DNA from: Lingula anatina
Taxonomy: Eukaryota; Animalia; Brachiopoda
NCBI GenBank assembly: GCA_051362555.1
Contig: CM120646.1
Span: forward strand, 22,134,001-22,198,000
DNA length: 64,000 nt
Reading direction: 5' to 3'
Part shown: positions 1 through 61,336 of the stretch, in pieces
Position numbering within the stretch: position 1 is the first letter of the stretch
Layout: the number at the start of each line of letters is the position of its first letter
Translations under genes and position numbers: made by a program
The notes under the pieces: model-generated
The model's database searches: none
The model's input: the letters and a program-made list of their open reading frames with translations, nothing else
Told to the model about the DNA's origin: nothing

Positions 1-54
1 ATAGAGGAAATGGGGCTGTCTTAGAATCTACCAATACCACCATGCAGGTGGCAT
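1..54 (+). CDS. 3' end of a C2-type Ig exon (cassette 0 of the V+C2 array), truncated by the window edge
   Basis: Encodes ...RGNGAVLESTNTTMQVA then T|gttagt donor; identical to the end of exon 1455-1775. Confidence 0.85.
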
Positions 55-791
55 GTTAGTATGCTTCTACATATTTAGTGCACACAATTGAATGATGTAG
101 GTCCTACATATGTTTCAGCTTATTTAATTTAAAAAATGTTCCATGGTTTTCTGCTGTCGTAAGTCTTGATTAGGTATATTTGACCAACGCTGTAGTTTCA
201 ACGTACTTTCTGTATAGAATTGAATGCACTTAATGCTTCTCTTTATTTGTTAACTGATAAAATGAAGTTTTGCCTTAAGCACAATATTCGAATTAATAAC
301 AATAGCATAAAAAATGACAACCAGTGAAAATGTGAATGGACATTGATGACACACACGCCTACCTCTTCTCAACATTTATTGGGTTTTCCCTGCATACGTC
401 TGATGATCCAAAAATTCCAAGATATTGAGTGTACTGATATTGTCAGACCAAGATATATTGTTATTTTCAGGATGTCAGGAGGCATTTAGGATTCCACAAT
501 TTTCTTGACCTTATTTATTTAAAATATACTCAAACACATGTATGTAAGGCATGTAAACATTTTTGGCAAATGCTTACAAGTTTAGGTAATTGCAATATTA
601 TGTAGTTTTACATGTATTTTTCCCGTTTGATCATTACAGAATAGAATCTGTAGAAAATGACAATGATGGGAACGATTTAGCAAAATGAGGTTTAATCTCA
701 TAATAAACATATTCCATATCTACCATAGGCATACATATCGATGTCTTTGTTTGAAAAGAAAGACTGTTAACGTTTCTGTCGCTTTTTCCAG

Positions 792-1115
792 ACACCACCT
801 CTGCCATTCCAGTCATTGGTTATGAAGGAGAGGTTATTGAAATGCAGTGCCAATCTGATTCATCAGGAACAATAACCAGTATACAGTGGTACCTGACGGA
901 TCCTGATCCTGACAAGAGAGTAGCCTATTGGACAGGATCAGGTCAGCCTACGTATATTGGACCACTGACCAATGGACGAGCAACTGTGGCGACACCTTCA
1001 GGAAACCTGACAATACATAGTCTGATGGCATCTGATGCTGGAGGATATGAATGTAGAGTGTATGATGAGAGCTATTTCCAAATACTTGTAGTGGAGTACA
1101 TTTTGACAGTATTTG
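792..1115 (+). CDS. V-set Ig exon, cassette 1
   Basis: tttttccag acceptor, G|gtgagt donor, phase 1-1, 324 bp open; C..IQWY..GNLTI..DAGGYEC V-set pattern. Confidence 0.9.
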
Positions 1116-1454
1116 GTGAGTAAATTTGATTATAATGCATGATATTATAAAACATAATACAGTTTCCATTATTATTCATATTAAATCTACCACATGCAAT
1201 TTTGTATACTTGCTGTTTTTTTTCCAGAATGCACCACTGCACCTCCCCCACACACCATTGCATTTAATTTTAAAATATATTTACAAAAGATTGGTGCCAA
1301 TTTGGTGGCCTTTTCATGGCTTCCTTTTTGTTATTACCACAAAGGAATGCAGGTCATTTGCAAAGTCTAAACAATGGTGTTACAGATAATCGTGATATGT
1401 ACATTATTCAAGCTGGGCCAATACCATGAAGAGAAATTCATTTTTTTCTTCCAG

Positions 1455-1775
1455 TGAGGCCCACCAATCTCCAGATAACAGGTCTGAGTGGACTGGTAAC
1501 AGAGGGTGTGTCTACCAGTGTCCAGTGTATCATAGGAAGAATACTTCTACCACCTACAGCTCCATATGACGTCTACTTTAAAGAAGGAGATGATGTTGAG
1601 TACCAAGTGACAAGTCTGTCAACTTCCAGTAATTCTGATGGCACCACGTCTGTCACAGCGACTGCAACTGTCCAGCTTGAGAAGTCAGATAATGGGAAGC
1701 CATTCCAGTGTATTGTGAGGGATAGAGGAAATGGGGCTGTCTTAGAATCTACCAATACCACCATGCAGGTGGCAT
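1455..1775 (+). CDS. C2-type (nephrin/CD80-like) Ig exon, cassette 1
   Basis: ttccag acceptor, T|gttagt donor, phase 1-1, 321 bp; VQC...SDGT...DNGKPFQC. Confidence 0.9.
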
Positions 1776-2509
1776 GTTAGTATGCTTCTACATATTTAGT
1801 GCACACAATTGAATGATGTAGGTCCTACATATGTTTCAGCTTATTTAATTTAAAAAATGTTCCATGGTTTTCTGCTGTCGTAAGTCTTGATTAGGTATAT
1901 TTGACCAACGCTGTAGTTGCAACGTACTTTCTGTATGGAATTGAATGCACTTAATGCTTCTCTTTATTTGTTAACTGATAAAATGAAGTTTTGCCTTAAG
2001 CACAATATTCGAATTAATAACAATAACATAAAAAATGACAACCAGTGAAAATGTGAATGGACATTGATGACACACACGCCTAACTCTTCTCAACATTTAT
2101 TGGGTTTTGCCTGCATACGTCTGATGATCCAAAAATTCCAAGATATTGAGTGTACTGATATTGTCAGACCAAGATATATTGTTATTTTCAGGATGTCAGG
2201 AGGCATTTAGGATTCCACAATTTTCTTGACCTTATTTATTTAAAATATACTCAAACACATGTATGTATGGCATGTAAACATTTTTGGCAAATGCTTACAA
2301 GTTTAGGTAATTACAATATTATGTAGTTTTACATGTATTTTTCCCGTTTGATTACAGAATAGAATCTGTCGAAAATGACAATTATGGGAACGATTTGGCA
2401 AAATGAGGTTTAATCTCATAATAAACATATTCCATATATACCATAGGCATACATATCGATGTCTTTGTTTGAAAAGAAAGACTGTTAACGTTTCTGTCGC
2501 TTTTTCCAG

Positions 2510-2833
2510 ACACCACCTCTGCCAGTCCAGTCATTGGTTATGAAGGAGAGGTTATTGAAATGCAGTGCCGATTTGATTCATCAGGAACAATAACCAGTAT
2601 ACAGTGGTACCTGACGGGTCCTGATCCTGACAAGAGAATAACCTATTGGACAGTATTAGGTCAGCCTACGTATATTGGACCACTGACCAATGGACGAGCA
2701 ACTATGGCGACACCTTCAGGCAACCTGACAATACATAGTCTGATGGCATCTGATGCTGGAGGATATGAATGTAGAGTGTATGATGAGAGATATTTCCAAA
2801 TACTTGTAGTGGAGTACATTTTGACAGTATTTG
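2510..2833 (+). CDS. V-set Ig exon, cassette 2
   Basis: Paralog of 792-1115 with intact frame and splice sites (donor gtgaga). Confidence 0.88.
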
Positions 2834-3179
2834 GTGAGAAAATTGGATTATAATGCATGATATTATAAAATATAATACAGTTTCCATTATTATTCATATT
2901 AAACTTACCACATGCAATTTTGTATACATACTGTTTTTTTTTTTTTTCCAGAATGCACCACTGCACCTCCCCCCCACACCATTGTATTTAATTTTAAAAA
3001 ATATTTACAAAAGATTGGTGCCAATTCGGTGGCCTTTTCATGGCTTCCTTTTTGTTATTACCACAAAGGCATGCAGGTCATTTGCAAAGTCTAAACAATG
3101 GTGTTACAGATAATCGTGATATGTACATTATTCAAGCTTGGCCAATACCATGAAGAGAAATTCATTTTTTTTCTTCCAG

Positions 3180-3500
3180 TGAGGCCCACCAATCTCCAGA
3201 TAACAGGTCTGAGTGGACTGGTAACAGAGGGTGTGTCTACCAGTGTCCAGTGTACCATAGGAAGAATACTTCTACCACATACAGCTCCATATGACGTCTA
3301 CTTTAAAGAAGGAGATGCTGTTGAGTACCAAGTGTCAAGTCTGTCAACTTTTGGTAATTCTGATGGCACCACGTCTCTCATAGCGTCTTCAACTGTCCAG
3401 CTTGATAAGTCAGATAATGGGAAGCCATTCCAGTGTATTGTGAGGGATAGAGGAAATGGGGCTGTCTTAGAATCTACCAATACCACCATGCAGGTGGCAT
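3180..3500 (+). CDS. C2-type Ig exon, cassette 2
   Basis: Paralog of 1455-1775 with intact frame and splice sites. Confidence 0.88.
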
Positions 3501-3679
3501 GTTAGTATGCTTGTACATATTGAGTACACACAATTGAATGATGTAGGTCCTACATATGTTTCAGCTTATTTAATTTAAAAAATGTTCCATGGTTTTCTGC
3601 TGTCGTAAGTCTTGATTAGGTATATTTGATCAACGCTGTAGTTTCAACGTACTTTTCTTATGAAATTGAATGCACTTAA

Positions 3680-6600
3680 GTGTGTGTCCATGATAAGACC
3701 AGTCAGAGGGTGGCAAGGTGGGGGTCAACAGATTTCAACCAAATTCATAATATTGTTGCATATATAGGAGATATTAAGATTGAAGGCAACAATCCCAAAA
3801 GAAATCATTGGATATAATTATAATATGATATTATATGTTTTGGCCATTTTTGGCTTGATTTTCAGCTTCGGTCAATAAAGCCACTTCATAAGCAAATATT
3901 TCAAAACTGATGACTTTTTAAAATTAATTGAAAATTTACCTATTTAAACCAGCCATTTGCCATTGAGAATATTTTACTAAATTTCAGTTTAACCCACAAA
4001 CTAACGAGCCACGCCCATTTTTATGACCCCACCCCCCAAACTCACTTTTCTACCAAGCAATGTTCAAACATTCATATCTCTCTTTTTGCAGGCTTGACAG
4101 CCATAAAATTTTATAGGGATCCTAAGCATATATTGGTCTAATCATACAAAATTCAAAAAGTGTGTTAAACACAACAGAAGACATTGAAAAAGTGCCTCAA
4201 ACTTTAGCAATTTTAGCAGAAAACCAAACGGCCGAAATCAAGATATCAGTACATTTTGAGATAATACCTTCCAATAATCAAATTTAATCAAAGACTCACA
4301 GCCAGGAATTCCAACTATGCTTTGATAAGGGCAAATCTATCCAATTTTTATAAATACAAAATGGCTGCCATCAAATCTGTCCCAAAATACAGTTACCCTA
4401 ATTCCTCAAAATAATCAAGAGGCCCATTTTTGCAGGTTTTTTATTTTGAGATCTGTAATACAGGATTGCTCAAATAATATTCTTTTCAGACAGAGCCATA
4501 CAACTTCTGAATAAATTTAAATTACTAGTGACAAGTTATCCCCCCCCCCCCCCAATTTAATAAGTTATTACTGTGCATATCCAGTGTCATCAGCATTGTG
4601 TATATACCTTATTTTCAGGGAGCAATAGAGAAAAAAATTACAAATGATTTTTCTAAAGGTAAAAGGGAATGACTGTCTTATTTTATCAGTTTTCTCAAGT
4701 GCAACACTAATTAATCTACTTGAAATGATTTATATTGCATTTTTCAACCATTCTTTTTCCTTTCAAATGATTCATAGGCTTTGTAAATACATGTGATATC
4801 TTGATATCTATATTCTTTTTCTATAAAGAAAATTAAAACAGAGTCAGCAACATACAATGACAGGAGGAGTACTTTATTTTCATATCATCAATTGGACAGT
4901 AAAAGAACAAAGCAGTTACTTTTTACAGGAGTGAAATCAAGTTATGAATCTCCAAGGTTCCAATATCACAGTCATCTTTTCCACATACTGAACACAACAG
5001 TGATGGGTAGTGTTCAACAGATTTTAATCTTATAACTGATTGATCCCCAAGTTTCTTCTTCTGGTTGAGAGATCCTGGGTCTCCTACAGTAATATAATTC
5101 AGCAATCTTAGAATAAGTGTGGTAACTTGAAGCAACATGCCACTATAGTTTAGTGTGACTGAACTGTCAATTGTCAATATTTGTCAATTCAATGGCGCCA
5201 ATCCTCCTTTCCTACAAAACTGATTGAGATTGCCAAGCCTAAGATGCATATTTGTTATGGGGGATTGTCCCAAGGTGGCTCTAAGTCCAATAAAGGTTTG
5301 CCAGGATATCCACTACTGCGTCTACCTGAAGATGGCAGGACAGGCTGTCAAAAGAAAATGTATTAAACATATTTTAAACTCATGTTAATTGCTGTATAAG
5401 AACCATTACTAAATAATATTCTGATCAAACATATTGCATAAGTGTAAAAAAGGAAATCAAATATGCATGATTGTAGCTACCAGAATTTCATGATAGAAAA
5501 AGAAACAAATGAAAAAAGGTAAACCTTTTTTCTTCTACGTGGAAGTGTTCCAGGCATTACAAAGTTGGTGCTCACATCTGAATCTGATGAATTTGCCTGT
5601 GCAATTTCAGGAGACTTTTCTATTATTGTCTGTAAGATTGTCCAAGTCAAGGTTCACATACAGGGCTAGGATGTAAAATCTGAAAAATAAACATAATATC
5701 AATAAATGCTTTACAACAACAGAGGCTTACTGTGTTCAGAATAGAAACTATCGTAGCAGGATCAATCTATCTCAGCGGAGTATCACACTCGGGCTCAGTC
5801 GTTGTAATCAGCTTAATTGTCTGGCACGCCCCCTTGCAAAGCAACATGAACAACATAATGGACTGCAAAGTTTTCCTGATTTTACTAAAGTACCTTTAGT
5901 TACAAGTGTCCTGTGTAATATGTAAGTCTTGAAAATTGAAGCACAGTTGTGTTACAAAGTCACATAATTATAGCTAGGCGGTTAACTTCAACTTCATTGT
6001 AAACACACATGAATCTGCATAGTGAATATAAAACTAAAATATAAAAAACTGGCACAAGTTACATCCCCTAAAATGCCAAAACTTGAAACTGAATGTGTGT
6101 TACATACATACATGTTTACCATGAAACAGAAATCAAGTAAAACTCTGTGAATTGAAATATACCAGTATGTTTTTTAAATTTGCTTATATTCTTTATATTA
6201 CTGAATAATATTCAAACTTATTATTTAAACTGGTTTGACTTTTTAGTGTATCTGATTCTAGTATATGTATGCCACCACTGATCACTTACCTTACAACAAA
6301 CATCCAGAGCTAAATCGATGAGATGGATATATTGAGGAACCCAAGCCTGACAACAGTCTGAAGTGGTTCAACCAAAAAATGCACATTCTAAGGACGACCG
6401 GCTGCTATGGTCATTTCTTGTTATATTCTGGTGCACACCAATCATTCTGAGATGTACCTAAGCATCTCTAGTGTGTGTTCTTCATAAATTTAAGAAAGTA
6501 TTATGTTTTAACACTGTGAAGACGATGTGCTTTGCTCTACAGTTGCTCCGGTGATAATCCTAGTACCCGCCATGTTGAATATAGGTCACAGAGTTAGCAT

Positions 6601-7332
6601 CGTTATTTTACATTTAGTTTCTACAACATAAACAAATTTAAAAAATGTATTTTCGCTTCATAAGTTCGTCTGCAGGGCAAACATATTTATTTTAAGGGCT
6701 TCTCACAAACCTATACATGGTTTTGACCTATTAATTTAGTTGAAGAAACAGTTTAGCATTTAAGTAGTATAAAAATTTTCGTTTTTAGGCCCTTTTTAAA
6801 ATTGTTATAGTTCTTATTTTACAAGGTTTAACACAGATTTTATTTTACAAAATTTATTTTTCAACCCTTTTCTATCAGCACATACCAAAATTATATGGAT
6901 ACAACCTGCAAAAAAGAAGTTGTGTGCATTTAAAGAAGGGGAGGGGGTCAAACATACGGAAAACATGCCATATTAGAATCAACCTTGTGTGGTCATGACA
7001 GTGCCTTTTCAAAAAATCTGTACTGGGTATTAAAGGTCTTTCCTTAACCTATCATGTGGCTTACCTAAATAATTCCTTATGATGTACATGATTTTTTAAA
7101 AGAATATTTAAAATTATAACTTTTCAAGAGCTAAAATATGCTATATTTTGGCAAAATTGCCAATAAAAGATCTGCCCCCATATCTCTAAAACTAATGATC
7201 CAAAATAAGAAAGCCAGTGGCTCACAATATCTTTTATGTTGATGGTTTACCACACCAAAAATTATTAAAATCTGCTGACCCCCACCTTGCCGCCTTCTGA
7301 CTGATCTGTCTGGCTTTCTCATGGACACGCTC
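3680..7332. mobile_element. Non-autonomous TIR DNA transposon, Sola3-like (TTAA target site), 3.65 kb
   Basis: TTAA duplicated at 3676-3679 and 7333-7336; ~55 bp imperfect TIRs (GTGTGTGTCCATGATAAG..GGCAAGGTGGGGGTCA versus reverse complement GAGCGTGTCCATGAGAAAG..GGCAAGGTGGGGGTCA); the empty site gcacTTAAtgc is present in the two upstream repeat units. GAG/CTC termini with TTAA fit Sola3; the family call is inference. Confidence 0.8.
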
Positions 7333-8470
7333 TTAATGCCTCTCTTTATTTGTAAACTGATGAAATGAAGTTTTGCCCTAAGCACAGTATTCAAATTGAT
7401 AACAATAGCACTAAAAGTGACAGCCAGTGAAAATGTGGATGGAAATTGATGACACTCACGCCTACCCCTTCTCAGCATTTGGGTTTTGCATGCATAGATA
7501 TTGAGTGTACTGATATTGTCGCACCAAGATATATTGTTATTTTGACGTTTACAAGTAATTCACTGAGAATAATTATCTATTACTACTTATGAATGGTCCA
7601 ATTGGCAAACATTTTAATATGGTAACCCAATGCCAAGTCGTTTATATTCATTAACATCTACTTCCGTGATTCTAAGATAAGTTATTGTGATGACAACTGT
7701 TTGTTTGAGAATCAAGATTACACAGATTGTAAACAACATATAAAAAATATTATAAATTGCGTTTTACGACTTAAACGGCGGTTATTGCAATCAATCTGAA
7801 ATCAGTGGTAGTAAATCGGGCTTTTGATGCACTTATTCCCGTTCATCAAGCAAACCGTTACCAGTGGCGTTGGGGTGTCCCATCCATTCTCACGTTCATT
7901 CGAGACCAAAACAAGAAACTGTCACATAAGGAAGCAGACGTGCGATGCAGTTCTCAGACAGAGCTGTAAGTTGTGAGTAATGATACATTGCGTCACGAAA
8001 TAAAAAGTCCAGTAATACATGTTTTGCATATATTATTCGTTATGTATACTTCGTGTATAATGTGACGCAAATGTCTTGAGGAACGTCTACGTCGTCGGGC
8101 TTTATAAATCCCAAAGTCGAGACGGCCAACTAAATGATAAATCGCGTTAGGATTATTAGCTCAATTCAATAAAGCATAAAGAATAAAGAATACGGAAGAG
8201 AAACCTGCATGATTGGACAGAGTCGCTGAGTGTGGTTACCATCAATCTTCTGTAGCCAGCGGAGAAGTACTCGGTCCCAACACAGTTTTAGGCGGCCATC
8301 ATTAATTACGTACCTTTAGGCGGAAAACCGAACCGGAAAGCGTCCCAACAATAATCTCCGTGACTTTCAGTTGCGGAGAGAGGTTTTTAACACTTGTCCT
8401 ATCAGGTGTGACGACTGTTTTAAGATGTAAGTAAACAGGTCCTCCAACCTGGTACGAACGTTTCAGCAGA

Positions 8471-9240
8471 CACGGATTATTGTTCCTTTTTCATACGAGA
8501 AGTGGCCTTTATAACCAACCAATAGGTTTTGTGCCATGCTCCTTTCTTCTGTTTATCCTTCTTTTGTGTTCAAAAGTTGTTTCTTCGTAGCGACCGGCGC
8601 ATTGACTTGTTAAATTAGAAAAGTCGCGAGGTACTCCTACTCACTTGGCCTTCACCGATGGAAAGGAGGTCAAGCAATTTTCAACACTTCCCCCCGCCTG
8701 ATCATTTAAATGCTAGTATCTCAGTTTAGTGACACACAATAAATGTTACAATTGTTGAATTTTAAATAGTTTTTGTCTATTTGATGTTTGATGTTCTGAA
8801 AAGGGCGTTTTTTTTTTTAAATCATTTTCAACTAAAACCACCTTGTTTGCACGTTTAGTAACACCATTTCGTACTCCAAAACCCTGCAGGCGACACTAAT
8901 AATGTACCAATTTTTTGTGAACATGCCCAAAATATTTCATCTCTATCGGTTAGCGAACGTTTAACTGCGTGCTCGGGGCGTTTGTCTGTGTTTGGACATT
9001 TTTTTCTCACACGTAAGTGTCACAGGTGTGATAATTGTTTTTTTTTTAATAACGCCACCTCCAGTTCAATCATTCAAAGACATTTTATCTGCAGCATCTC
9101 CTTTACGACAAGAAAACAGTTTATGGTAATTGAAATACATGTCATAATATTCTGAAATACGTTTGTATTTTGTCCAAATTTTATATTTTTCATCTTATTT
9201 CTTTCAATATATTATTATTATTACAATTAAGGGTAACTCA
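8471..9240 (+). repeat. Paralogous copy of the gene A intron 18992-19855
   Basis: Colinear similarity from cacggattattgttcc to caattaagggtaa. Confidence 0.85.
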
Positions 9241-9245
9241 AAACA

Positions 9246-9366
9246 ACCCAGCAGGCACATTATGTTGTTTTAACGTTGAAACAACGTTGAAACATAACGT
9301 TAATAAAATGTTGGGATTTAAAAGTTGTGTCAACGTCAGATAACAACGTTGTATCAACCCCAGTTG
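9246..9366. mobile_element. Probable DNA transposon terminus with AACGTT subterminal repeats
   Basis: Begins acccagcaggcac exactly where the intron homology stops, followed by repeated aacgtt/caacgt motifs; other end not found. Confidence 0.4.
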
Positions 9367-9955
9367 ATAGACAATATGTGGGTAGGCCATTACTAGCGGA
9401 AACAACGGCCTACATGTCCTACAACAAAACTGGACCAAATTAGACAGATTTTGACCAATGCCTGGAATATTATTTCAGATTGAACTATAAAAACCCATCC
9501 CACGGAATGCCTTCCCGCTTGAGAGCGCTGGTAGCCCCCAGAAGAGGTCGGGCGTAACAGCGACCGTTGCTGTGACTAGACACTGACATGAGGGTCCTTT
9601 GTGGAGCGTGTAACTTTTTACAGTCGATAATTTGGAAAATATGGAGATCCAAAGTATCTCTTTTAATGGTTGTCGTATGACATACAATAGGCAATGTATA
9701 TTTGTTCGCTTTTCTGGCGAATTCAGTTAATGAACTGATGTCACAATGGCATCAAAGAGATAATTTAAAGTTAATAAAACACGATGTTAATCCTTATTGT
9801 CATTTATCAGTTAGCCAAATAAGAATAAATGATGAATAATAATTTGGAAAAAATCTTTCATGTTAAATGTCAAGGCTGTATAAACAGGGTACATGTGCTT
9901 GTGTTTATCTGAGGCAGAAACGAAAGGGAAAGTCGGGGGCTTGCAGCTTATTTAA

Positions 9956-11450
9956 GGCCGGTGATAGGGTTAAATACGCTTAAAATCATGTTTTTGAGTT
10001 TTTTGTGTGTTTATATTAATCAAAAAAAGTATCTAACGTTGGATGTAATAATTTTTATGAATTTGCATCGCAAAATGTGTCTTTTGATGAGTTTTTCAAC
10101 CGGCACGCGCCCCAGTCAGGCTGACAACTAAGCCACGCCTCTGTTACTAAGGGCCGTTGCCATGAGGGGGTCGGAGCACAGTTAATGAGTTATAAGCCGA
10201 TTACATGTGCGGTAATAGGTCATAAGTCTTACATCAGCTTAGCAGCGAAGAAGTCTAGCTAGTACACTATGGGGAAGAGAAAAGTTCGTGTTAAAAGTCC
10301 ATTTCCAGAGGAAAGAAAGAAAATTTTGAAAGAGAGTAGGGCCTATGCGAGGCGGTTGGGGAACTGATTTCTGTATACCTAATAAATGGGTGAAAGAGTT
10401 AATCGAATCGCCTAAATTAATTGACAAATGAAAGAAAAATCGATAAATAAATTTAAAAAAACGCTAAAAAGGATACTTTTAGCCTAGCTCTTAATTTTTG
10501 CGATATATATCGGCGAGCGTATCTGCGACACGTTACGAAACCGGAAATGATTGTTGGTCGCCGTTTGCAAAAGGTAAATCTAATGTTGACAAAATAAAAT
10601 TTTATTCTCCAAGAAATGATATCATGGAGCTTGAGAGACACGCGAAAAATTGTGATGTGAATGGCCAAACGAGAGAAATCCAAGCAAGGGTTGACAGCAT
10701 GATTAAAACAATAAAAATAAAAACGCATGTTAGCGGCTTTGCATTTTGCGATGTTTGGAGAAAAACAATTTCAAAATCACTGATCAAGCGGGAAGAAAGA
10801 GTTCAAAATGTATCCAAAAATGAAAATCACAAAAAGACCCCGAAAATAGTCAAGACTAGCAGGTAAAAAGCAAATAGGGTCTAAGTGTCATGTGTGTAAA
10901 AATAAAATATTTATTCAAAAGCCTTCTCTCAGTCACTTTTACCGCTGAATCTTGTGCAGCTGAGCGTCTCCCCTTTATCTTAGCTGGCATTTTGAGAGAG
11001 ACCGCTCTGAAGTAATCACTGGATTTTTCCGTTGATCTGACGATTACCAAGTGCCGTGCAAAATAATCCTGCAGCGTTATCCGTCAAAAAACTCTTATTA
11101 ACACAAGTGACGGCCACTTGCTCTCGACAGACAGTTTTATCTGATCACTTTGCCGATAACAGAAAAGGAATCTCTCAGGTAAAATTACTCGTTTGCCGAG
11201 GAAAAGCCATTGAAACGTTCAAATGCAACTTCACACCTCTTAATTGCGGTTAAATGTAATCGCTTTTGTTAGCGCTTCCTTCTACATATCCTTGACACCC
11301 TACTGGGCATCACTAGGCTAGGGCCCTCTCCAGAGCTGTCAATCAAAATGGCGGCACGCTTACAAGCCTAACGAGTGGTCGGAAAATGTAACAAAAGCAC
11401 GATTTTCTGCCCTTTCAAAGCACCCAAACAAAATATTTTTAGATGACAAT
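9956..11450. mobile_element. Possible Kolobok-like transposon remnant with a decayed THAP-like domain
   Basis: TTAA|GGCCGGTGATAGGG start; 10540-10750 reads NDCWSPF..KIKFYSPR..and a frameshifted HVSGLHF resembling the THAP xCSxHF motif; right terminus not found, end coordinate approximate. Confidence 0.35.
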
Positions 11451-14121
11451 GAGCAATGGTTCCACCTGATCGTATAACCGATAACAGGTAAATTTGCCAG
11501 CTAAGCATTTGACTAATAAGCTCTGTTAACCAACCTGTGAACGTTTTTGGCTGTTTAACAGCTTTCTATATTGACGAGATAAGTGAATCGCTGCCAAGTA
11601 TATCTCACTATCTGAGCAACCGATCGTTACAAAAGTTGCACCTATTGTTGTTGGGAATGTGGACTACAGCATGATATCAGGGGTTTAAGAGGAAATTGTT
11701 TGTTTGAAAGTTATCGTCTTTTGAAGTGAATAACCCATTGAAATATGGGGTAATTTAACATAAAAGATGATAAAATCAAAAGTAAATAGTTTAAGACAAT
11801 TCCCTGGTACCGCGCTGAAGTGCTTTCACCCAGCTTTATGAGGCCTTTTGAATCACTTGAATAGCTGTCTTGGTTATAGAGAAAATCCCAATTCCGAAAA
11901 CGGCATTTCCCCCCCAAAATTGGCGCTATAGCGTCATCCGTTGGACACTGTACTTAATCCCCGTCTTTAATTGGCCTTTTGGGAAGTTTGTTTTAATTTT
12001 TTATAAAAAGTTATAAGCCCAGGGCTTTGTTTCTATGACTTTGGTCCTTTTACTATTAGTGGCCTTAAATGTTATATATGCTGCAACAAGTACCTGCAAG
12101 CCTAACTTTCGGAGATTACCGTCTATGTTATATCTGGATGCTCTATATAAAGTGATTTGGTGTTCTGTATGATATGTATCTGAAATAGTTTGGTTGCTTC
12201 CATCCCCTTTTCTTTGGGCACGTGGGCCGTGGACCTCGTCTTCTGCTATGGAGATGGGGTGAGAAGCATTATTTGCCATCTTGACCAACGTGTCTGTATT
12301 CTTAGTTATTTAGAACATTAAAGTAAAACTTATATTACTTTGGTCCACTTATGTAGATTGAACAGCTACATGTACACGCATTACTCGTTTGTAAAATTTA
12401 ATCTTGAGAGCAATTTTATGTGGCCTTGAACTTGTTTACGCAGCACATATTTAGTTATGTCTTCCACGTGATTATCACCTGCTGAAGCCCCAAGGACAAT
12501 GTTATGATCTTAATGCGTAATCCAGATGGAGTATGTACCAAGTTATCTTGGAGTTACTCAGAGCAATAGGGTGACGTTGTGATTAAATAAAGAACACTGT
12601 GTTGCTCTCAGGTGGGTCACCCCGTGTTCTTGTAGTGTATTGGAAATTATATTGACATCTTTTTAATTATTGATTGCAGTATGACCCTTTCTTGTAAAAT
12701 GTACTTTTGAAGATAATTCAATAGATTGAACAACAACATGGGTGTGGTCGCTTGTGAAATGCGCTCTTGAAGACCATGTTATAGAGCGCACGTTATCTGG
12801 CCCTTAACTTGTTTACGTGACCCAGTTTTAGTTTTGACCTAAATAGTGATCATCACCTGCTGAAGTGCAAGGAACAATACTGTGGTCTCTTAATATGTAA
12901 TCAAACTGGACTTTGAAACCGTTGTGCATGGCTTTCGTGATAACTTAACTGCCTTAACATTGTTTTACCTGTGGGAATTGAGTTTGTGGTCTGACGAGTA
13001 TGTCATTGTGCTCTTTGAGAAACACATGGCAGCATGTGGTCATTGTTTCCCCATGTTACTTGCCGAAAATATTAACAATTATATTTAACCAATGATATCA
13101 AAGGCCGAAGTTGAATTTAGTTACACGATTCACTCGAAATGTTACACATAGGCACTGTGGTCGGTTTGTCAGCATACATCTTTATAAACGCTTTGACCGC
13201 AATATCGCCACCTTCACTGTAGTAGAGTGGAGGTGAGACGACTGATACTTGCCATAGCATTTGTTAATACGGTGGTCAAAGAACAGCTTTTCCCTGTCCC
13301 TCATCATCTCGCAATCGATTAACATTGGTTGAAACCGAACCGACATGAACAATAATTTATTGACGCATGCAGAGGTGAAGGCAAATACATGTAGCATCCA
13401 TTATATCAGCTCCCAGCTCTGATCGTGAATCAAAACTCTGAAAGGTTTTAAACAAAATTATTGACATATGCCAATATATCAGCGATCAATTAGTTTGATG
13501 TGACATAAATATGTTCATAATAATCTACCAACATCTTATTTCATGATATTCAAGTGTCATTTTTAATATTAGCCATCGTAACAAGGACTGGATAATTAAA
13601 GTTGCGGTGATTACTTAAAATAACAAACTGAAGATGTTGAACTTTACTTAAAATATATAAAGGATTTCAAGTTCAACTTGTCTAAGGGCAAGTTATACCT
13701 TTGATCATTTTGTGTGGGTTAAGGACTTTGTAATTTGCAAAGCTATTTTGACAAATTAACTGTCAGAAAAGGATGATTAAATGAAAACTCGTTAAGTAGG
13801 AGTGTTGAGCTTTCAAGGGGTACATTTAAAGGAGACTTTGTTCCACTTACTTGGATCATTATGGTCAGTATGTCCTATAAAAAGAAGAAATATAAAAAAA
13901 TGCACGACAAAACATATTCTTTCCAACTGTGCCCAAATAAATAAATTATCATAACAGCCGCCATTGCATCAAGAATAACTGTGTGATTCCAAAACTGCAC
14001 TGCTTATTCTTGATATGCCTCAACATAACTGGCATTGGGGAATGGATGCTTTAAGGGTCAGAAATGTAATTTTCTTTCTCAAACAGGCCGGAAAATTCCA
14101 GAAAGCCATAAGGTCTAATTA

Positions 14122-15507
14122 CACACACTGGACAAAAGAAGTGTCACCCCTACTGAGCCAATACTATGGGGGAGATAAATGACTGTGGAATGATATGCTC
14201 CTAGTATCATTTTATTAACATCAAATTTCACAAAAAATCACAAAATGAGAACAAAATATACATTCTACCAAAATATGTAGTTTCAAGTCCAAAATTAGTA
14301 CTTAGTGGCATAGCCACGTGACCTAATAATAGGTGCCAGTCTACGAAGCAAGGATTCATTTAATTGTCTGATGCGTTCAGGGCTATTGCTGGCCCAAGCA
14401 TGAAACACTGAATATAACAGAGTTTCTCTGCTGGTTAGACGGGCATTTGTAAAAAGTTTTGACATATCATTCCACACGTTTTCTATTATGTTTGTATCCG
14501 GACTCTGGGCAGGCCACATCACCCTGCGAATGTACTGTTGGTCAAACCAATCATTAACTGCTCTGGGCCTGTGACAAGAAGCATTGTCATCCTGGTGAAC
14601 AGATGGATTATTCCTTTCACCAAACATGTTAGTAATAGATGGTAGCAAGCCTGACTCCAAAACATCGATATATTTCTAGTGATTCATGTTTCCATTAACC
14701 ACTATCAATTCGCCCAAGCCATGGATGCTGATGCAGCTCCACACCATGATGAATATGCTGCTCCGGGTTGGAAAATTCAGTGCATGTGGTTCAAATGCTT
14801 TACCAGCAGTTTGCCAGCATAGTACCCGTCTGTCATCAGAGGTCAGACCAAAGCGACACTCATCAGAAAAAATATATAGGACCAATTGTCATGAACTGTC
14901 CAGTTCCAGATCCTGTTGACCCTAGTTTACTCTACGTTGCCTGTTTTGTAACGATTTAAGAGGTTTCAGTCTTGCTACCCTGCTGTACACTCTCTGAGCA
15001 TGTAACCGACGCCTAGCAATTTTCACAGACAAATTCTTATGTGTGAAATTGTTCCACTGTGTTGTCAACTGACAAGCAGTGTCGAACTTTGGCAACCTGG
15101 ACATCAAAATAAGTCGTCGGTCTTCACGGCCAGTATTTTTTCTTGGACGACCCATCAGAGGCAATTTGTCTCTTGATCCAGTGTTTCTATACCGAGACCA
15201 GACCCTCTGCACGGTTCTGACTGAACAATTCAATTGTATCGATATTCTGACATTGCTTATATTCCGCCTCTTCAGGTTAATAACTTGCACCTATAACCGT
15301 TAGATAATTACCTGTATCTTGCCATACTGGAGGAAGACAGGAATAACATTTGCTGTACATGTACAAGACCAACAATACAATTCCTCGGTATAGCGGTTTT
15401 ATACTCATTAGTCACATTATAAGTAGACCAGGCATTATAAGTACCCAAGATCTGCCTACTTTCATTACTCTGAGTTAGGGGGTGACACTTCTTTTGTCCA
15501 GTGTGTG
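14122..15507 (-). mobile_element. Tc1/mariner DNA transposon, full length (1386 bp)
   Basis: TA target duplication; TIRs CACACACTGGACAAAAGAAGTGTCACCCC at both ends; transposase remnant inside. Confidence 0.95.
14295..15325 (-). pseudogene. Tc1-family DD34E transposase, disrupted by stops and frameshifts
   Basis: HTH region (CSVRTVQRV..GRPRK), FSDECRF, QDDNASCH, WPAQSPDTNIIENVW, GYATKY end; 34 residues between the second D and the E; split across three ORFs. Confidence 0.93.
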
Positions 15508-16108
15508 TAATTTTTTCAATATTTTTTATCAAAACATTAAACCGAAAATCCACTTATAACATCCGCCAATTGTTTTTATGTAAAATTAAAATTATTACAA
15601 ATGGATGAAGGCATTCTATGCATCGTACTTTAAAGACAGACATTTCAAATCTCCCTTTACCTGAATGATTTCCTCAGGAAGACAAGGCCCCACATCAATG
15701 TCTACCATATCTCTAAGCAAACATCAATAAATATCCATTGAACAAATCACGAGTGTCGAAACCTCTTTGAAATCATTTGGGATATATCATGTAGTATGAC
15801 CTTGGTTTCATATTCGGATCATTACAGATTTAGGATCATTTTTTTTTACATACCGACTTTTTTTTCTGACTATGGAATAATCTTAACATTGTGTACAGCG
15901 TTTATTGTTGACAGAGCAGGATTGTGGAATAAACTAGTGTGAACTAGAAACAGAATATTCTATTTTGCTTTAGTTAGTCATTAACAGAAGAAAACACCAC
16001 CGATGTTTTTTAAACACTGTAGAAAATTATCTTAGATAACATGAAAGTCAATAAATCAACTACTCAGAAAGAAACCCCGTTTCTTGTTTACTAACATGCA
16101 CATTTTAG

Positions 16109-16186
16109 GATCTCCAACCACCACAGTAATGACAGAAGTCATAAGCACAATAAGTAGTACCAGCACCATGGTGATTAGTACAGTTG
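16109..16186 (+). CDS. Candidate Thr/Ser-rich (mucin-like) micro-exon
   Basis: cattttag acceptor, G|gtgaat donor, phase 1-1, 78 bp; SPTTTVMTEVISTISSTSTMVISTV. Confidence 0.4.
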
Positions 16187-16699
16187 GTGAATATAATAGC
16201 ATCACTACGGTTTGTTCATTCTTGTTTTATATGCCAATTAAAATACCCATTTGTTGTCTCTCGGCCAACCTGGTTTTCATCTACTTATCTAGGGTCTGTC
16301 GGATGAATTTTTTTATTATTCTTAAAGGGTGAAAAGTGCACGTAGACGACGCCAAGCCCAGGTGATAACTTTATGTGCAGACGCATAGGGTATGCAAAAA
16401 GAAACTGGTTTTCAAGTCACCGACTGTGTTGTCTACAGTTTGGGTAATGTATAACTACTGATACTTAATGTATTAACATTTATTACTTTCATGTGACTTC
16501 GATATCTTAAATAAATAACCTTTAAGGGGCAAGATAACGCAGAATGTTTTGGTAGGCATGCTCGCACCAGGTGCAGTCATATTTCAGGTCAGATCACGAA
16601 TCCTAAAGACAAGGAAGACGGGAAATCACAGAGAGTTTAAGCAGAAAGGTATCACATAGTCGGTATTGGATTAAAATAGCTATTCACGGCGTGCTATAC

Positions 16700-16700
<1 letters not shown>

Positions 16701-16752
<52 letters not shown>
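16701..16752. repeat. (TG)n microsatellite
   Basis: Direct observation. Confidence 0.95.
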
Positions 16753-16754
<2 letters not shown>

Positions 16755-17969
16755 GTGCGGGGGCTGAACAAAAGTACTGTGGCTTCCACTTGCTGCGGTG
16801 ACCTTTTAATTGGGCTAGCAGATTTGGCTGCCCGCCAGCTTTTCTTTTGCTGCATAATATGCTGAGTAATTACTGCGGACTGCTATTTGTGTCAATACAA
16901 ATTTCTAACATTTGAGTCGGTCACCTTCAAAAAATGCAGATACATGTACTATGCAGAATTTGAATGTTTTAACTTCACACGCTAACGACCAGCGAAAGAA
17001 GGGGTAAAAGGGAAAGAAATAGCTACATAAACCTCAGAAGCTAATAAGGACCCGACGCTGTTATGTGTGCATGTGACTTTCATTTTACTCAGATTTTTGG
17101 ACGGAATATACATACAGTTATGACCACCTATTGTTTACTACAAAAGGAAATAGTGTCATTTTGATTTAATATTTAAACTCTACGGAAATACCACAGTGAA
17201 ATAGTTGCATAGAGTTTTTTTTATAATTAGAGTAGAAAATAGACAATAAAATTGAAACACACACGCTTATCTTTGGCACGTTATATTGTTCAATTGTGGA
17301 ACTTGGAACTTCGCTGATTTATAACTATCATATACAATGCGATTGCACTATTTATATGCATACGTTTATTTTTTTAAAGACCATCATGGTTTACAGCAAC
17401 AGGAACGTTCATCTTAATTGGGCATGTGTCATGGTGTGGCTTTGCACCAGTATTACCTGTACGCTAAAATGTAAGTATGTCAATGCCGACACACACATGG
17501 ACGTCCACTTACACATAGAAAGATTGCTGGAATTGAAATCTTTCACAATTGTCTTTAAACTTATTTTTATTGAATTATTTATTTAATTATGTTTCAGTTT
17601 TCAGTATACTTCAAACTTTATTTGCCATTTTAAGAGATGTTATTTTCAGGGTGTCGGGGAGGCATAAGGATTCCTCAATTAGTTTGATCTTATTTAACAA
17701 AAATATACTCAAACACATGTATGTATGGCATCTAAACATTTTGGCAAGTGCTTACAAGTTTAGGTAATTACAATATTATGTAGTTGAACATGTATTTTTC
17801 CCGTTTGTTCATTACAGAATAAAATCTGTCGAAAATGACAATTATGGGAACGATTTGGCAAAATGAGGTTTAATCTCATAATAAACGTATCCCATATCTA
17901 CCAAAGGCATACATATCGATGTCTTTGTTTGAAAAGAAATACTGTTAACGTTTCTGTCGCTTTTTCCAG

Positions 17970-34684
<16,715 letters not shown>

Positions 34685-35914
34685 CTGATTGTTGCTAAAG
34701 CAGATTAAGAGGCAATGCATACGTTGAAGTATCTTACCAATTATATTGAATTGAACTCATATACTATTTCAATATTAGATATCTGCAAAAAAAAGACACG
34801 ATATTGCTTGACGGTAGTCTACGTTTTGTTAATGTACTACGGAGTGTTTATGCGTAATATGCGCAAATCTTTATAACGGTAGTATGAAAATATACATATA
34901 CATGTATATTGTACAATTTTGCTATGTTATTCTCCCTGGGTGTGCGAGTGCCATTTTATTCATTTTATTAATTATTTTTACTGCAAAAAAAGTTTTTTAC
35001 TAATTCACATAATTACCATTTTAAGCATAATTTCCAAGGCGTGTCACCTGAATTGGGGTATCAAGTGCGTGTATTTTAGAAAACGGCTCGTGTGAAGACG
35101 GGTAGTGGGGTCGGTCTCTTTTGCAACCCCACAACTGAAATTTCTGCAAAATTATTTGTAAATAATAACTTTTGCTTAATCGTCACATCATAATTTTTAT
35201 TGATGATTTTTATCGATAAGTCTTATTGAAAATTTGATATATACTGTTATCCCTAAGACCATAACATTTAATGCAGGGAAAATTTTGTTACATTGTTATT
35301 ATTGTTAAAATTATTAGGATATTGCCGGTTATATAATAAAGGCGGTCTTGCTTGGCGAAATCTCGAACAATCGATATTCTTTGTTGCCTTCTTTCTTGTC
35401 ATAAATGGGTATTTGAACGTTTGTGGTGCATTGGGATGGAGGAGACATAAATCAGATTCTGTAGGTTTGTCATTCATTCTTTCAAACATTCCACCATGTT
35501 ATGAGACCCAGTAGGTAAAAACAAGTGCAGATGAAGCAGCCAAGGCTATAAACATAATAAGTGAGCTATTGGATGGATGGGTTTTATAACCTAGATTTGT
35601 TTTGTTCAGGTCGACGACAATATCATGTTAAAGAATGTTTAGTGATATATCCCTGTCTGCAACATGAGTTTTAGTCTACCGATTACAATGCATGTATTAT
35701 AAGCAGTGGATTATGTACGTTGTAATGCTGGTTTTACAGCGCAATTTTTTGCACGATGTCTGTTTTGTTACATCAAACAATACGGGCAGACTGCCGGTTT
35801 TGAACATTCTGCTGATCAAATTCATATATTGGTGTTCTTCTCTAACTTATATCTCGAAATGTTTAAGCCACAATCAAGAAGAATGTATGCAAGTTATTGT
35901 GGCTTGCGTGTTTA

Positions 35915-37134: not shown

Positions 37135-38310
37135 ATGATGTTCTCCAGTCTATTGATACTGTGTTTGTCACCATGTTGACTGGTGACATTGATTCCTTAA
37201 TGGTTATACGGGATAAAAAGGTATCAAAATTATCTTTGCTGACCTACCAAAATTCACCTTTATGTAATGGAAATATTTCTCGCAAAAGTTATGACAAAGA
37301 AATCGTATTTGTCATTTTTGTTGTTTGGCGGTAGAAAAAAACATACGGTTTGGCTAAACTAATGTTGAATTGTAAGGTCAGTGTTAGCAGTTCAGGTTCA
37401 TGCTTATAATTCATTCAGAAATAGTGATAAGATCCATAAGACAGAACTGCTCTCTACAGAACTGCACACTATAACAATGTGAGCCATAGGCAGTAAACAG
37501 TGATGCTCTCAGCACAGACTACCAAGATACATAAAAACCAAAAACATGTTATTATATTACTATAATTATGACAGACAAAAAGTATCGGGAACATCAATAA
37601 CGGTGAAAAATTGATAGAACCCTAAATCATAAGATGAATGCATGTTTCTCTTACAGGTACATGATGAGCCACCAAGTGATATTTGGGCTGCCAAATGGAG
37701 ATATTTCATAGATATCCTGGACATAAACGGAGATGGAAAGCTGGATAAAAACGAATACGTAAATATGATGGCAGCAAGAGTAGGTGCAATAACGAAGTCT
37801 GCTGAGAAGGAAGAGGAAATAAGAGCTTATTTGCAGACTGCATGGGACAAATGGTGGAAAGAGCTTATGAATGACCAAAACTTAGAAAGCTTAACCGCAA
37901 ACGATGTGAGCAAAAACAAAGCTGAAATCATTGTCAAAATGGTTGAGCGACATAATCTCGACATCGAAGACAATTGGGCTCTTACATTCCTTAAGCTGGT
38001 GGATGCAAACGGGGATGACATTCTCGATGCAAAAGAGTATGACAATTTTCTCAAAATCTTCCACGCTATATTTTCTGCAGACATTTTCTCTGAAGTGGAT
38101 TCCAACAAAAATGGTGCTATTAGCAAAGATGAAATGGTTATAAATCAGTTGCTGTTCGATACAAGTGACACCATGAAAGGGGCAAATTTTTACGGGAAGG
38201 TAGTCTTACCTAATGGCCCTTATATAGTCTCAATAAGTGAACGACTACGAGGTTACGAGTCGAACGACATATTTAACCAGAGTAGGGCCTCATTTGTTAT
38301 TTTTGCTTGA
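37135..38310 (+). CDS. EF-hand protein 1 (sarcoplasmic calcium-binding protein/calexcitin/aequorin-fold); leader exon has a 1-nt frameshift
   Basis: Exons 37135-37220 and 37657-38310; EF loops DINGDGKLDKNE, DANGDDILDAKE, DSNKNGAISKDE, with the second EF site degenerate; in-frame ATG at 37173. Confidence 0.8.
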
Positions 38311-39949: not shown

Positions 39950-40993
39950 ATGATGATCTCTTATTCAATGGTAACCGTTTTTGCTGCCATGTTGATGAGT
40001 GACAGTGTTTCCACGCTAGTTATACAGGATAAAAAGGTACATAGGTCATTATCTATACTGTCACTAAATGGAGTTTACTTTTTTATCTTAGAAGATCTAT
40101 TTTGGTAAACAGTTATTTCAAGTTTTGGTTCGTACGGAAGGGTCATATAAGACAATGGAATTGGTATGTTTCCGGAAAAAGTACATGGGGATCGTTGTAC
40201 AGTGCAACAAAGGGACCGCCGCCAAGTGATTATACCACTTCAAATCCGTAGGAGCTGCAAAAAAATAAAGAAATTAAGAAAAATATTTCAAATACTGTGT
40301 TGACTTTTATCAATGCACTGCGGTATATGTCTATCAACGTTTCGACTTTGATAATTGATTAAAACAGACTAGTAGATTTTAACCATGTACATGTAAGTCT
40401 CATCATTTCCACATATTTCGTACTGATATTTAACACTTACCTTTCAGACGCCTGGCGGTATGGATATTTGGGCATCCAAATGGAGACATGCCTTAGAAGA
40501 CCTCGACGTAAATGGAGATGGAAAGATGGATAAAGACGAATATGTCAACGGGATTGCTGCCAGAGTAAGAGCTATAACAATGTCCACCGAAAAAGAGAAG
40601 GAAACCAAGGCATATTTGAAGGGAATATGGGACAAGTGGTGGAAAGGTCTTATGAATGACGATAATTTAGAAAGTATTTCAGTTGACGACTTTATCTCAG
40701 CCAAGACAGAAATACAAGCGAAAATGGTTGATAACCAATACCTAGACACGGAAGTTAAATGGATTCTTACGTTCTTTGAGCTGGTGGATGCAAACGGAGA
40801 TGGCATTCTATTTAGAAAAGAGTTTGCCAATTTCCTCAAGATTTCCCACACTCCATTTTCTACGGATATTTTCTCTGAAGTAGATACCAATAGCAATGGT
40901 GCTATAAGTAGGAGTGAAATGGTCATAAACCATTTGTCGTTCCTTACAGGCAACAGTATGGAGGGGAAGGATTTGTATGGAAAAATAGAGTAA
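39950..40993 (+). CDS. EF-hand protein 2 (SCP/aequorin-fold) with a predicted signal peptide
   Basis: Exon 39950-40036 MMISYSMVTVFAAMLMSDSVSTLVIQDKK|gt, exon 40448-40993 in phase 0; EF loops DVNGDGKMDKDE, DANGDGILFRKE, DTNSNGAISRSE; probable non-coding first exon ending near 39295. Confidence 0.88.
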
Positions 40994-49600: not shown

Positions 49601-49882
49601 AATATGCCACAGTTGTTCATTTCCTTTAAGGTTATATAATGGCTATCCATATCCGTGCTTTTAGCAATCAGTGCCTCGTTGGCCAGATGCAACTGTGGAC
49701 TTGTAGTCATATTTCGTGAGGGTGTGGGTTAGAACTTTCATATCGTAAACAAACATCTGGTCACTAATTTTCAAATTTTTCAGAGGCCCCCGGCCACGGA
49801 AAGCAGTATCTATGATGTTCCTGACCATCAAGCAAGTCAAGCACCAATCTACACAGACCTTCGGCCTCCTAGCGTTATGTGA
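43626..49882 (+). CDS. Gene B: kinase-less type I membrane IgSF receptor (SP-V-C2-C2-I-I-FN3-FN3-TM-short Tyr tail)
   Basis: Exons 43626-43671 (MAVLPVVVWFYISLH), 44143-44457 (V), 44839-45153, 45523-45810, 46389-46664, 46869-47159, 47517-47828, 48489-48764, 49041-49169 (TM), 49391-49464, 49784-49882 (RPPATESSIYDVPDHQASQAPIYTDLRPPSVM*); all GT-AG and in frame; AATAAA signals near 49980-50020. Confidence 0.9.
47379..47440 (+). other. Partial duplicate of the FN3 exon 5' end with an intact acceptor and in-frame stop (candidate alternative terminal exon)
   Basis: gccag|GA CCC CCA GAA.. gives GPPERPTDFRISSWTSAHIR*. Confidence 0.55.
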
Positions 49883-58600: not shown

Positions 58601-58801
58601 TATAAGGAAGTATGATTCTTTTATTTCTTTTTCGAGTTTTCGCTCCTATATAACTGGTGGTATATGGATAATAACTTTGTTTGCCAATGTTTCTATTTTT
58701 TTCAGAGTTCGACCGAAACAAGTGTGTATGATGTTCTTGACCAGCAAGGCCGTGAAACAGCAATCTATACTGACCTGCAACCCCATAGTGAAATGCGATA
58801 A
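52622..58801 (+). CDS. Gene C: kinase-less type I membrane IgSF receptor (SP-V-Ig-C2-I-I-FN3-FN3-TM-ITAM-like tail)
   Basis: Exons 52622-52694 (leader), 53282-53659 (V), 53962-54228, 55020-55307, 55889-56164, 56364-56654, 56914-57225, 57521-57796, 58112-58234 (TM), 58483-58556, 58706-58801 (SSTETSVYDVLDQQGRETAIYTDLQPHSEMR*); all GT-AG and in frame. Confidence 0.9.
52932..53177. repeat. Foldback inverted repeat (~85 bp arms) in the gene C leader intron
   Basis: 52932-53019 is the near-perfect reverse complement of 53096-53177. Confidence 0.9.
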
Positions 58802-60405: not shown

Positions 60406-61336
60406 TTTACCTATGATAACCACAGGGTACCTGTGAAACGGAGATCTACAGACATATTTACGGAATGATCGCTCACATAACAGAATAGTTTAATTTTACA
60501 TGGCAAAGGTATGTCTTTGACATCATATGTGAAAGTATGTACTTAGACATGCATGTCTTAATCTTTGAGACAAGCATACATGTATGAATACACTAAACTT
60601 CTTTTGTTAATATATTATTTTCTAAGATTCAGTATTGTTGGTCATTTACTACAGTAAATTATGCGAAATAAGACATCAGTGACCCGCAGACATAAATAAA
60701 AAAAATGTTTGAATATTCCAAATAAATGAAAACGCACACTACAGTGCATAGACTTGACGCACGCTTATTCGAAGACAATATCTTCAGATTCCCAAAAGAT
60801 ATCTAGGCCTATCCAGACACGGCACGGAAGGACCCAAAATACACCGTAGGTCGGATCACGTTACCGGTTTCCAAGGTGTGTATCAGTACGTGCTTCGAAG
60901 TAGCAAAGGCGGCATCCCCGTATCACGTTAACATATTGCGTACCAAGCAAGAGGGTGACGCGACAAGACGTGCAAGATTTCAGATTTCGACCAAGGACTG
61001 GTTTGAAAGCCACCAGTATAAGAGAAAGTCACAAGTACTAAGGGTTTGATTTTTAGAACTATTCTAAATATTTAAAATTTTCTTTTCATTAAACTGTTCA
61101 GCGCCACTGGTTGTAAATTATAAAGCGTAAATACCCCACAAAAAACTAAAATGTTAGTAGTTCGCATTTGGGAAACACGTCAACTACTACACATGTTGTC
61201 TAATACTACATTTTTTCATACAAGGGCCGTTATCCAATCCGCTGGATGTCTCCAGAAGCTCTGTATGATAACATGCATTCCACACAGTGTGATGTCTGGG
61301 TGTATGGTGTACTGATGAGGGCGATTTTCACATTCG
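60406..61336 (+). pseudogene. Decayed tyrosine kinase exons homologous to the gene A kinase
   Basis: ~60406-60508 PMITTGYL*NGDLQTYLRNDRS (cf. PLIITEYFPNGNLLEFLRKDGS); ~60962-61033 DKTCKISDF-frameshift-KDWFESHQYKRKSQ; 61225-61336 [37 protein letters not shown]. Confidence 0.85.

Follow-up and report, generated by a model that had tools for sequence, protein, structure and literature searches.

Do neighbouring immunoglobulin (Ig) cassettes diverge because selection diversifies their binding surfaces, or because constraint on them has been lifted? In animals that lack antibodies, self/non-self recognition is ascribed first of all, as a candidate function, to the germline-diversified clusters of V-domain receptors found in non-vertebrates. 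The question is raised here by 64,000 nucleotides of the brachiopod Lingula anatina (assembly GCA_051362555.1, contig CM120646.1, positions 22,134,001 to 22,198,000; hereafter the window), whose start falls within a tandem array in which each unit pairs a V-set Ig exon with a C2-set-like one. An initial annotation, made from the letters alone, had proposed diversifying selection on binding surfaces. In our reading, to which we assign a probability of about one half, these are the last two units of a spliced V+C array that likely derives from the 5′ end of a receptor kinase gene and likely encodes a secreted multi-Ig protein, its terminal copy diverging under relaxed constraint with probable positive selection on a few surface patches.

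Organization of the tandem array

The array enters the window as the end of an earlier C exon at positions 1-54, followed by two head-to-tail units of about 1721 bp each. Unit 1 (1-1721) and unit 2 (1722-3446) are 96.6% identical over an alignment of 1961 bases, and all splice junctions of the V and C exons are of phase 1. Unspliced read-through from C2 would reach a stop codon at 3503-3505, two codons past the end of the exon frame. Table 1 summarizes the features of the array and of the kinase gene behind it, which supplies the outgroup copies V3 and C3.

Table 1. Coordinates of the V–C array, its 3′ flank and the receptor kinase gene (positions in the window)
Feature	Position	Strand	Remarks
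C exon 3′ end, cassette 0	1..54	+	Identical to C1 and C2 exon ends; array extends upstream of window
Intron A (C to V)	55..791	+	11 differences in 734 bases against 1776-2509; homogenised among internal units
V1 exon, V-set Ig domain, phase 1-1, amplified type	792..1115	+	Pfam V-set 50.2 bits; model pLDDT 88.7
Intron B (V to C)	1116..1454	+	13 differences in 339 bases against 2834-3179; exon-level divergence
C1 exon, C2-set-like Ig domain, phase 1-1	1455..1775	+	Pfam C2-set_2 22.2 bits; model pLDDT 85.8
V2 exon, terminal copy	2510..2833	+	Pfam V-set 48.5 bits; 9 of 11 V differences, V3 as outgroup
C2 exon, terminal copy	3180..3500	+	Splice joints at 3179/3180 and 3500
Repeat insertion, 3653 bases	3680..7332	.	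TTAA target duplication (3676-3679, 7333-7336), similar inverted ends; splits intron after C2
Intron copy	8470..9245	+	blastn to 18992-19861 (intron after C3), 84-85%; ends about 50 bases short of next Ig exon
Kinase-gene signal-peptide exon	17386..17470	+	Loose ends of X3 match; translation signal-peptide-like
V3 exon, intron, C3 exon (kinase gene's first two domains)	17970..18958	+	Outgroup; 90-91% identical to units 1 and 2
Remaining receptor tyrosine kinase gene	19915..34687	+	Nine more Ig exons, two FN3 exons, transmembrane exon near 30390, kinase exons 31440-34687

Read evidence for the copies and their splicing

Contigs from several sequencing runs were compared with the window. X1 is a DNA run in which unique flanks were matched without difference; X3 and X6, from two studies and labelled 'DNA?', were taken as RNA solely by their GT..AG joints. 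The X1 contig over V1 (777-1011) shows no differences at a depth of 371, and contigs of unit-1 type or common to the units stand at depths of 371, 358, 383, 233 and 217. A C2-specific contig (3305-3422) also shows no differences, at a depth of 43, while contigs outside the array lie at 42-57 in five of the seven listed and at 80 and 16 in the remaining two. We infer that the unit-1 type is present at about 5-9 doses per terminal copy, contig depth not being a copy number proper. A further V copy in X1 (contig on 808-1016, depth 80) has 14 differences to V1 and is unlike both V2 and V3, which points to a family member outside the window.

One possible source of the differences is the assembly itself: the letters that set V2 apart, or the unit structure as a whole, could be errors or a collapsed mixture of haplotypes. 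This fits a depth that implies more unit-1 copies than the window contains, and in four runs 2584-2706, with the V2 cluster around C′ (codons 36-49), is without a contig. However, contigs lose rare short variants and drop short single-copy bubbles, V2-type residues at codons 20, 65 and 93 are present in other runs (the one at codon 65 also in the further V copy of X1, and in X3 and X9), and errors would not favour replacement changes. The C2-specific contig confirms 10 of the 12 differences between the C exons. Assembly error is an unlikely source of the C2 differences, and we consider an artefact of the V2 letters or of the units very improbable.

Splicing was observed in both directions. The V-to-C joint 1114-3179 (GT..AG) is found in X3 and X6, and in X3 the joint 3500-2511 connects a C1/C2-type exon end to a V1/V2-type start; the cassettes are therefore spliced in tandem. 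The X6 contig is mosaic: in the V exon it is V1-like to codon 70 with the V2 residue at 93, and in the C exon it resembles C2 over codons 66-75 yet lacks the changes at 33, 52, 57 and 58. An X6 contig also runs from C2 into the following intron. Over the cassettes, raw RNA depth stays below about 1 in X18 and, apart from a trace, is zero in both X12 and X15.

Excess of amino-acid-changing substitutions

Our recount of the exons agrees with the counts first reported. V1 and V2 (792-1115 versus 2510-2833) differ by 11 substitutions, ten nonsynonymous and one synonymous, with exactly the ten residue changes originally listed; C1 and C2 (1455-1775 versus 3180-3500) differ by 12, giving 11 residue changes and one silent site. 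The third V copy likewise reads as it had been given.

Pooled over both exons, 21 of the 23 differences in 645 coding bases change an amino acid and two are silent, which corresponds to a dN/dS of 3.7-4.3 (about 4) with an exact 95% interval of 0.97-35. The one-sided binomial probability of this split under neutrality is 0.042, 0.028 or 0.022 at kappa 1, 2 or 3, and 0.033 with the mutation spectrum of the local introns. Tested singly, neither the V exon nor the C exon is significant (P = 0.10-0.18). Against the older copy 3, dN/dS is 0.37-0.68 over the comparisons made, or 0.40-0.51 at the level of the cassette, and it ranges from 0.15 to 0.74 in all ten of the other duplicate-exon pairs tested in the window. 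A codon branch model on the three sequences puts dN/dS at 4.0 for the two recent branches, compared with 0.31 for the one leading to copy 3 (P = 1.3e-4 against a single ratio and P = 0.025 against a recent ratio of 1). Constraint has clearly changed on the recent branches. That dN exceeds dS there is a borderline result (branch model P = 0.025; counts P = 0.02-0.04), for a pair picked post hoc from about 16 exon comparisons and with three full copies in the window.

Exon and intron rates within the array

Selection had first been argued from the exons diverging roughly twice as fast as the intron upstream of the V exon. The count for that intron is accurate (11 substitutions over 734 aligned bases, and an indel of three bases), but the contrast does not extend to the other non-coding parts of the unit. 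Divergence is 3.8% in the V–C intron (13 of 339 bases), 3.4% in the flank behind the C exon (6 of 178) and 3.6% in the exons (23 of 645), so that exons and these 517 non-coding bases cannot be told apart by rate (Fisher P = 0.60). It is the upstream intron that stands out, with 11 of 734 against 36 of 984 for V, V–C intron and C taken together (P = 0.007). The exon-over-intron argument fails because this intron, one of two and the only one used, is a homogenised outlier; homogenisation, which the initial annotation had itself named as a possible source of the contrast, does explain it. Within a tandem array, such a contrast depends on the intron that is picked.

The nonsynonymous rate was also set against the local non-coding rate. 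At 21 changes in 461 sites versus 19 in 517, it is 1.24 times as high (P = 0.30), not significantly above it; with silent sites added to the neutral set the ratio becomes 1.5-fold (P = 0.12). The silent rate is itself unusually low, at 2 in 175 (P = 0.07 versus local non-coding bases). The high dN/dS therefore results largely from scarce silent changes.

Polarised by copy 3, the changes in V, V–C intron and C number 9, 9 and 7 in unit 2 and 2, 4 and 4 in unit 1; one C site is different in all three copies. Where the upstream intron can be aligned, the balance tips the other way, with 1 change in unit 2 and 5 in unit 1. From V2 to the flank behind C2, coding and non-coding bases alike stand about 3.7% away throughout, against 1.1-1.5% between the internal introns. 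Such a contrast would be expected if the terminal copy at the array edge had been left out while unequal crossing over or conversion evened its neighbours. Unequal crossing over may also have amplified the unit-1 type recently to its dose of about 5-9 times the terminal copy, as judged from depth.

Location of the changes on the Ig domains

All three V copies are recognizable V-set domains, V3 scoring 43.6 bits and V1 and V2 more (Table 1) against a Pfam cut-off of 26. The eight V-frame residues G12, C19, W32, R62, L72, D81, Y85 and C87, following the list of Gly, Cys, Trp, Arg, Leu, Asp, Tyr and Cys in the passages of PMC9546547 compared here, are intact in V1-V3, and none of the eight is altered between copies. 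A J-type motif was not found in V1-V3. C1 lies just above its Pfam cut-off of 21 and its model has eight strands; the reading frames of C2 and C3 match no family at E 0.01.

The clustering first described along the sequence proved uneven. It is weak in V, with 4 of the 10 changes gathered within 7 codons (P = 0.06), and stronger in C, with 8 of 11 gathered within 25 (P = 0.008). On the V1 model, five of the ten V changes map to the three CDR-like loops (B-C, C′-C″ and F-G), which together make up 18 residues, and the 36 non-strand residues elsewhere have none (P = 0.003; versus the whole domain, P = 0.012). Taken over its full extent, the front sheet holds 8 of 10 changes in 61 of 107 residues, an enrichment that is not significant (P = 0.11). 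On the C1 model, 7 of the 11 C changes lie within the 23-residue D-E hairpin (P = 0.002). The bins for loops and hairpin were defined after the data had been seen.

Variation in other material touches some of the same positions. Each of the F-G loop codons 92, 93 and 94 varies elsewhere, be it in another copy or in another individual; C codon 66 is found as V, L and I. The V variants in other runs that are absent from V2 and V3 split into five nonsynonymous and five silent (24 V sites, from 40 of 69 rows), which tells against strong, general selection.

The V1 model matches the folds of 2B4, CD2, CD48, nectin-1, TIGIT and amphioxus IgVJ-C2 (5xpv) with TM scores of 0.73-0.83; at 16-24% identity, the V domains of CD2/SLAM, nectin, TIGIT and IgVJ-C2 have the fold in common with V1, not family membership. 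V domains of the CD2/SLAM, nectin and TIGIT families bind through the GFCC′C″ face. In the cassettes the fold is kept, and residues of the CDR-like V loops and of the C D-E hairpin that change at or above the neutral rate would retune binding.

Selection or relaxed constraint

The proposal of diversifying selection on binding surfaces thus survives in part: the branch model (P = 0.025) and the clustering in CDR-like loops speak for it, while its exon-versus-intron basis is gone and the rate is only 1.24-fold that of local non-coding bases. We regard diversifying selection on the cassettes as plausible. Since nonsynonymous changes accumulate at about the local non-coding rate, relaxed constraint explains the data equally well, and it could be the whole explanation. 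The array would then be a partial duplicate that is redundant, little expressed and on its way to becoming a pseudogene, with a true dN/dS of about 1 and clusters arising from chance and short conversion tracts. The dN/dS interval takes in 0.97, the nonsynonymous rate equals that of the surrounding non-coding bases within error, raw RNA depth is very low, and the gene is truncated, with transposon insertions behind it. Additionally, conversion and multi-base mutations inflate tests of this type, according to the parts of PMC8476164 compared, and positions 1626-1628 of the C exon are a three-base change. Yet the 645 coding bases are without stop, frameshift or indel when both introns have indels, spliced contigs come from two studies, and the changes cluster in the V loops and the C hairpin. 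Nor is the three-base mutation the source of the excess, since collapsing 1626-1628 leaves P at 0.01-0.04. Import of the C cluster from an old paralog was rejected as well: the dense C tract has eight nonsynonymous changes to one silent, and a copy of C3 age would be expected to bring a split near 14:17. We hold relaxation alone to be possible, at odds well short of even.

Probable origin of the array from a receptor kinase gene

The gene behind the array encodes an intact receptor tyrosine kinase. Its kinase exons (31440-34687) retain the glycine loop, lysine, HRD and DFG motifs, and one of them matches the kinase structures of CSF1R, Tie2 and FGFR1 at E 2e-6 to 6e-6. Local exon duplication has occurred elsewhere in the gene as well: a second, older tandem duplication of an exon pair lies in the ectodomain at 20336-24262 (dN/dS 0.73 and 0.15), and 33946-34229, like 47357-47424 further downstream, is a partial tandem copy within an intron, of a kinase exon and of an FN3 exon start respectively.

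In X3, contigs connect the letters of the signal exon to a V3-type start in one case and to a V1/V2-type start in another. V3 and C3 therefore open a gene of their own with the array upstream of it, and the idea that the cassettes are simply the first exons of the kinase gene was rejected, as V3 has its own joined signal exon.

Between C2 and this signal exon, the intron copy at 8470-9245 is likely the remnant of a partial duplication, judging by its match to the intron after C3. We infer that the array arose when the 5′ end of the neighbouring kinase gene was duplicated in truncated form, and that the V–C pair of this duplicate was amplified. In tblastn with 20 exon peptides, no remnant of an Ig, FN3 or transmembrane exon was found in 3500-17400. 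A secreted multi-Ig product is likely, though argued from absence: the search downstream gave no anchor exon, and the stop lies directly behind C2. Such an anchor-less protein could serve as a multivalent binder or as a decoy for the kinase's ligand.

The flank contains further elements. The repeat insertion at 3680-7332 has very high depth with loose ends at 3676 and 7336, and an X6 contig passes from 3663 into intron-A sequence; the insertion is likely absent from one allele, the one in X6. A Tc1/mariner-type transposon at 14117-15512 has 34-base perfect inverted ends and a broken transposase, and is of very high copy and transcribed. A Thr/Ser-rich open frame at 16110-16188, with plausible splice sites of phase 1-1, is a possible mucin-like stalk exon of the array gene.

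A different arrangement would make the cassettes alternative 5′ exons of the kinase gene, with C2 spliced to V3 over 14.5 kb and the signal exon skipped, yielding a membrane-bound kinase whose (V-C)n tip varies in copy number; divergence of the copies would widen its range of ligands. All junctions being of phase 1, this splice would be in frame; C-to-V splicing does occur, and no other downstream exon was found. However, the V3 signal exon is contig-joined directly to a V3-type start, the single C-to-V joint goes to a V1/V2-type start, and the 15 joints listed, out of 42, include none from 3500 to 17970. A separate duplicated gene is suggested by the intron remnant at 8470-9245, and we judge the alternative-exon arrangement improbable. 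The locus is very young and still polymorphic, and exon-pair amplification, divergence of the edge copy and mosaic alleles can be traced base by base.

Neighbouring genes and comparison with known systems

Two further genes follow the kinase gene. Genes 2 and 3 (43626-49880 and 53250-58800) are paralogous, combine V, Ig, FN3 and transmembrane exons without a kinase, and end in short tails with two tyrosine motifs each. One motif in the gene 3 tail (58688-58800) fits the ITIM consensus given in the compared passages of PMC9546547. Taken with the kinase gene, which is intact, they resemble a set in which activating and inhibitory members are paired. The array adjoins its likely parent kinase and likely inhibitory paralogs. 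Decayed tyrosine-kinase exons lie behind the gene 3 stop (60410-60484, about 60960-61020 and 61222-61339), which suggests that the tailed genes arose from a kinase gene through loss. A C exon of gene 2 (44840-45155) is 81-87% identical to C1-C3 and stands behind an unrelated V exon, an instance of domain shuffling between genes.

Several known systems share part of this organization. Ig/FN3 receptor tyrosine kinases (Tie, FGFR, CSF1R-like) have the Ig, FN3, transmembrane and kinase parts of the parent gene; here, in contrast, there are eleven Ig exons with a V-set tip, and the neighbours have lost the kinase and bear short tyrosine-motif tails. In mammalian 4Ig B7-H3 (CD276), an IgV-IgC exon pair is tandemly duplicated with copies 96% alike, as described in the compared parts of PMC3172298, and tandem V–C pairs are spliced into one transcript here too, as the V–C and C–V joints demonstrate. 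That protein has two copies and is membrane-bound, whereas the array has at least three, and more by depth, with no anchor found and a probable derivation from a kinase. Neither B7 orthology nor a transmembrane anchor was found for the array, whose likely source is the 5′ end of a kinase gene and whose sequence gives no evidence of B7 kinship.

A parallel in cluster layout is the allorecognition (Alr) gene complex of Hydractinia. Passages of PMC9546547 and PMC8282982 describe clustered genes with an N-terminal V-set domain, more Ig domains, FN3-like and transmembrane parts and tyrosine-motif tails, in which single-domain exons are shuffled by conversion or unequal crossing over and variable residues lie on the C/C′ side of the V domain. 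Exon shuffling is common to both systems, and the combination of Ig, FN3-like, transmembrane and ITAM/ITIM tail is present in genes 2 and 3, not in the array. On the other hand, the V domains of Alr, as presented in those passages, are without the Cys/Trp pin that is intact here, which places the array outside Alr; the Lingula cluster has an intact tyrosine kinase gene; and a tandem (V-C)n array in one gene is absent from the Alr descriptions compared.

Word-index protein searches with V1, a kinase exon and an FN3 exon, which weigh little on this point, gave no relative of greater length among 196, 24 and 189 candidates. Among 1.84 billion representatives, no close protein relative was present in the best 150 of 188 matches at E 0.001, full-length matches being about 21-39% identical; ten that were looked up are multi-Ig proteins, nine from fish and one from a mussel. 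By title and start of abstract, mostly outside the subscription literature, no invertebrate cluster of like make-up was found.

The pattern at this locus is real, and it is one of birth-and-death evolution of Ig receptors in a rapidly changing receptor cluster. A more far-reaching suggestion, which we consider doubtful, is an invertebrate recognition complex in which an activating Ig/FN3 kinase, ITIM-tailed kinase-less paralogs and a secreted (V-C)n decoy from the kinase tip co-evolve, with selection on the V loops. If true, this would be an undescribed paired-receptor system in which a built-in kinase replaces the ITAM adaptor. Between the receptor genes lie two single-reading-frame EF-hand calcium-binding genes (37633-38307 and 40427-40990) that are 73% identical to each other. 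At the far end, 62953-64000 holds the signal and V exons of a fourth gene, its V exon 64% identical to that of gene 3, and the cluster extends past the window.
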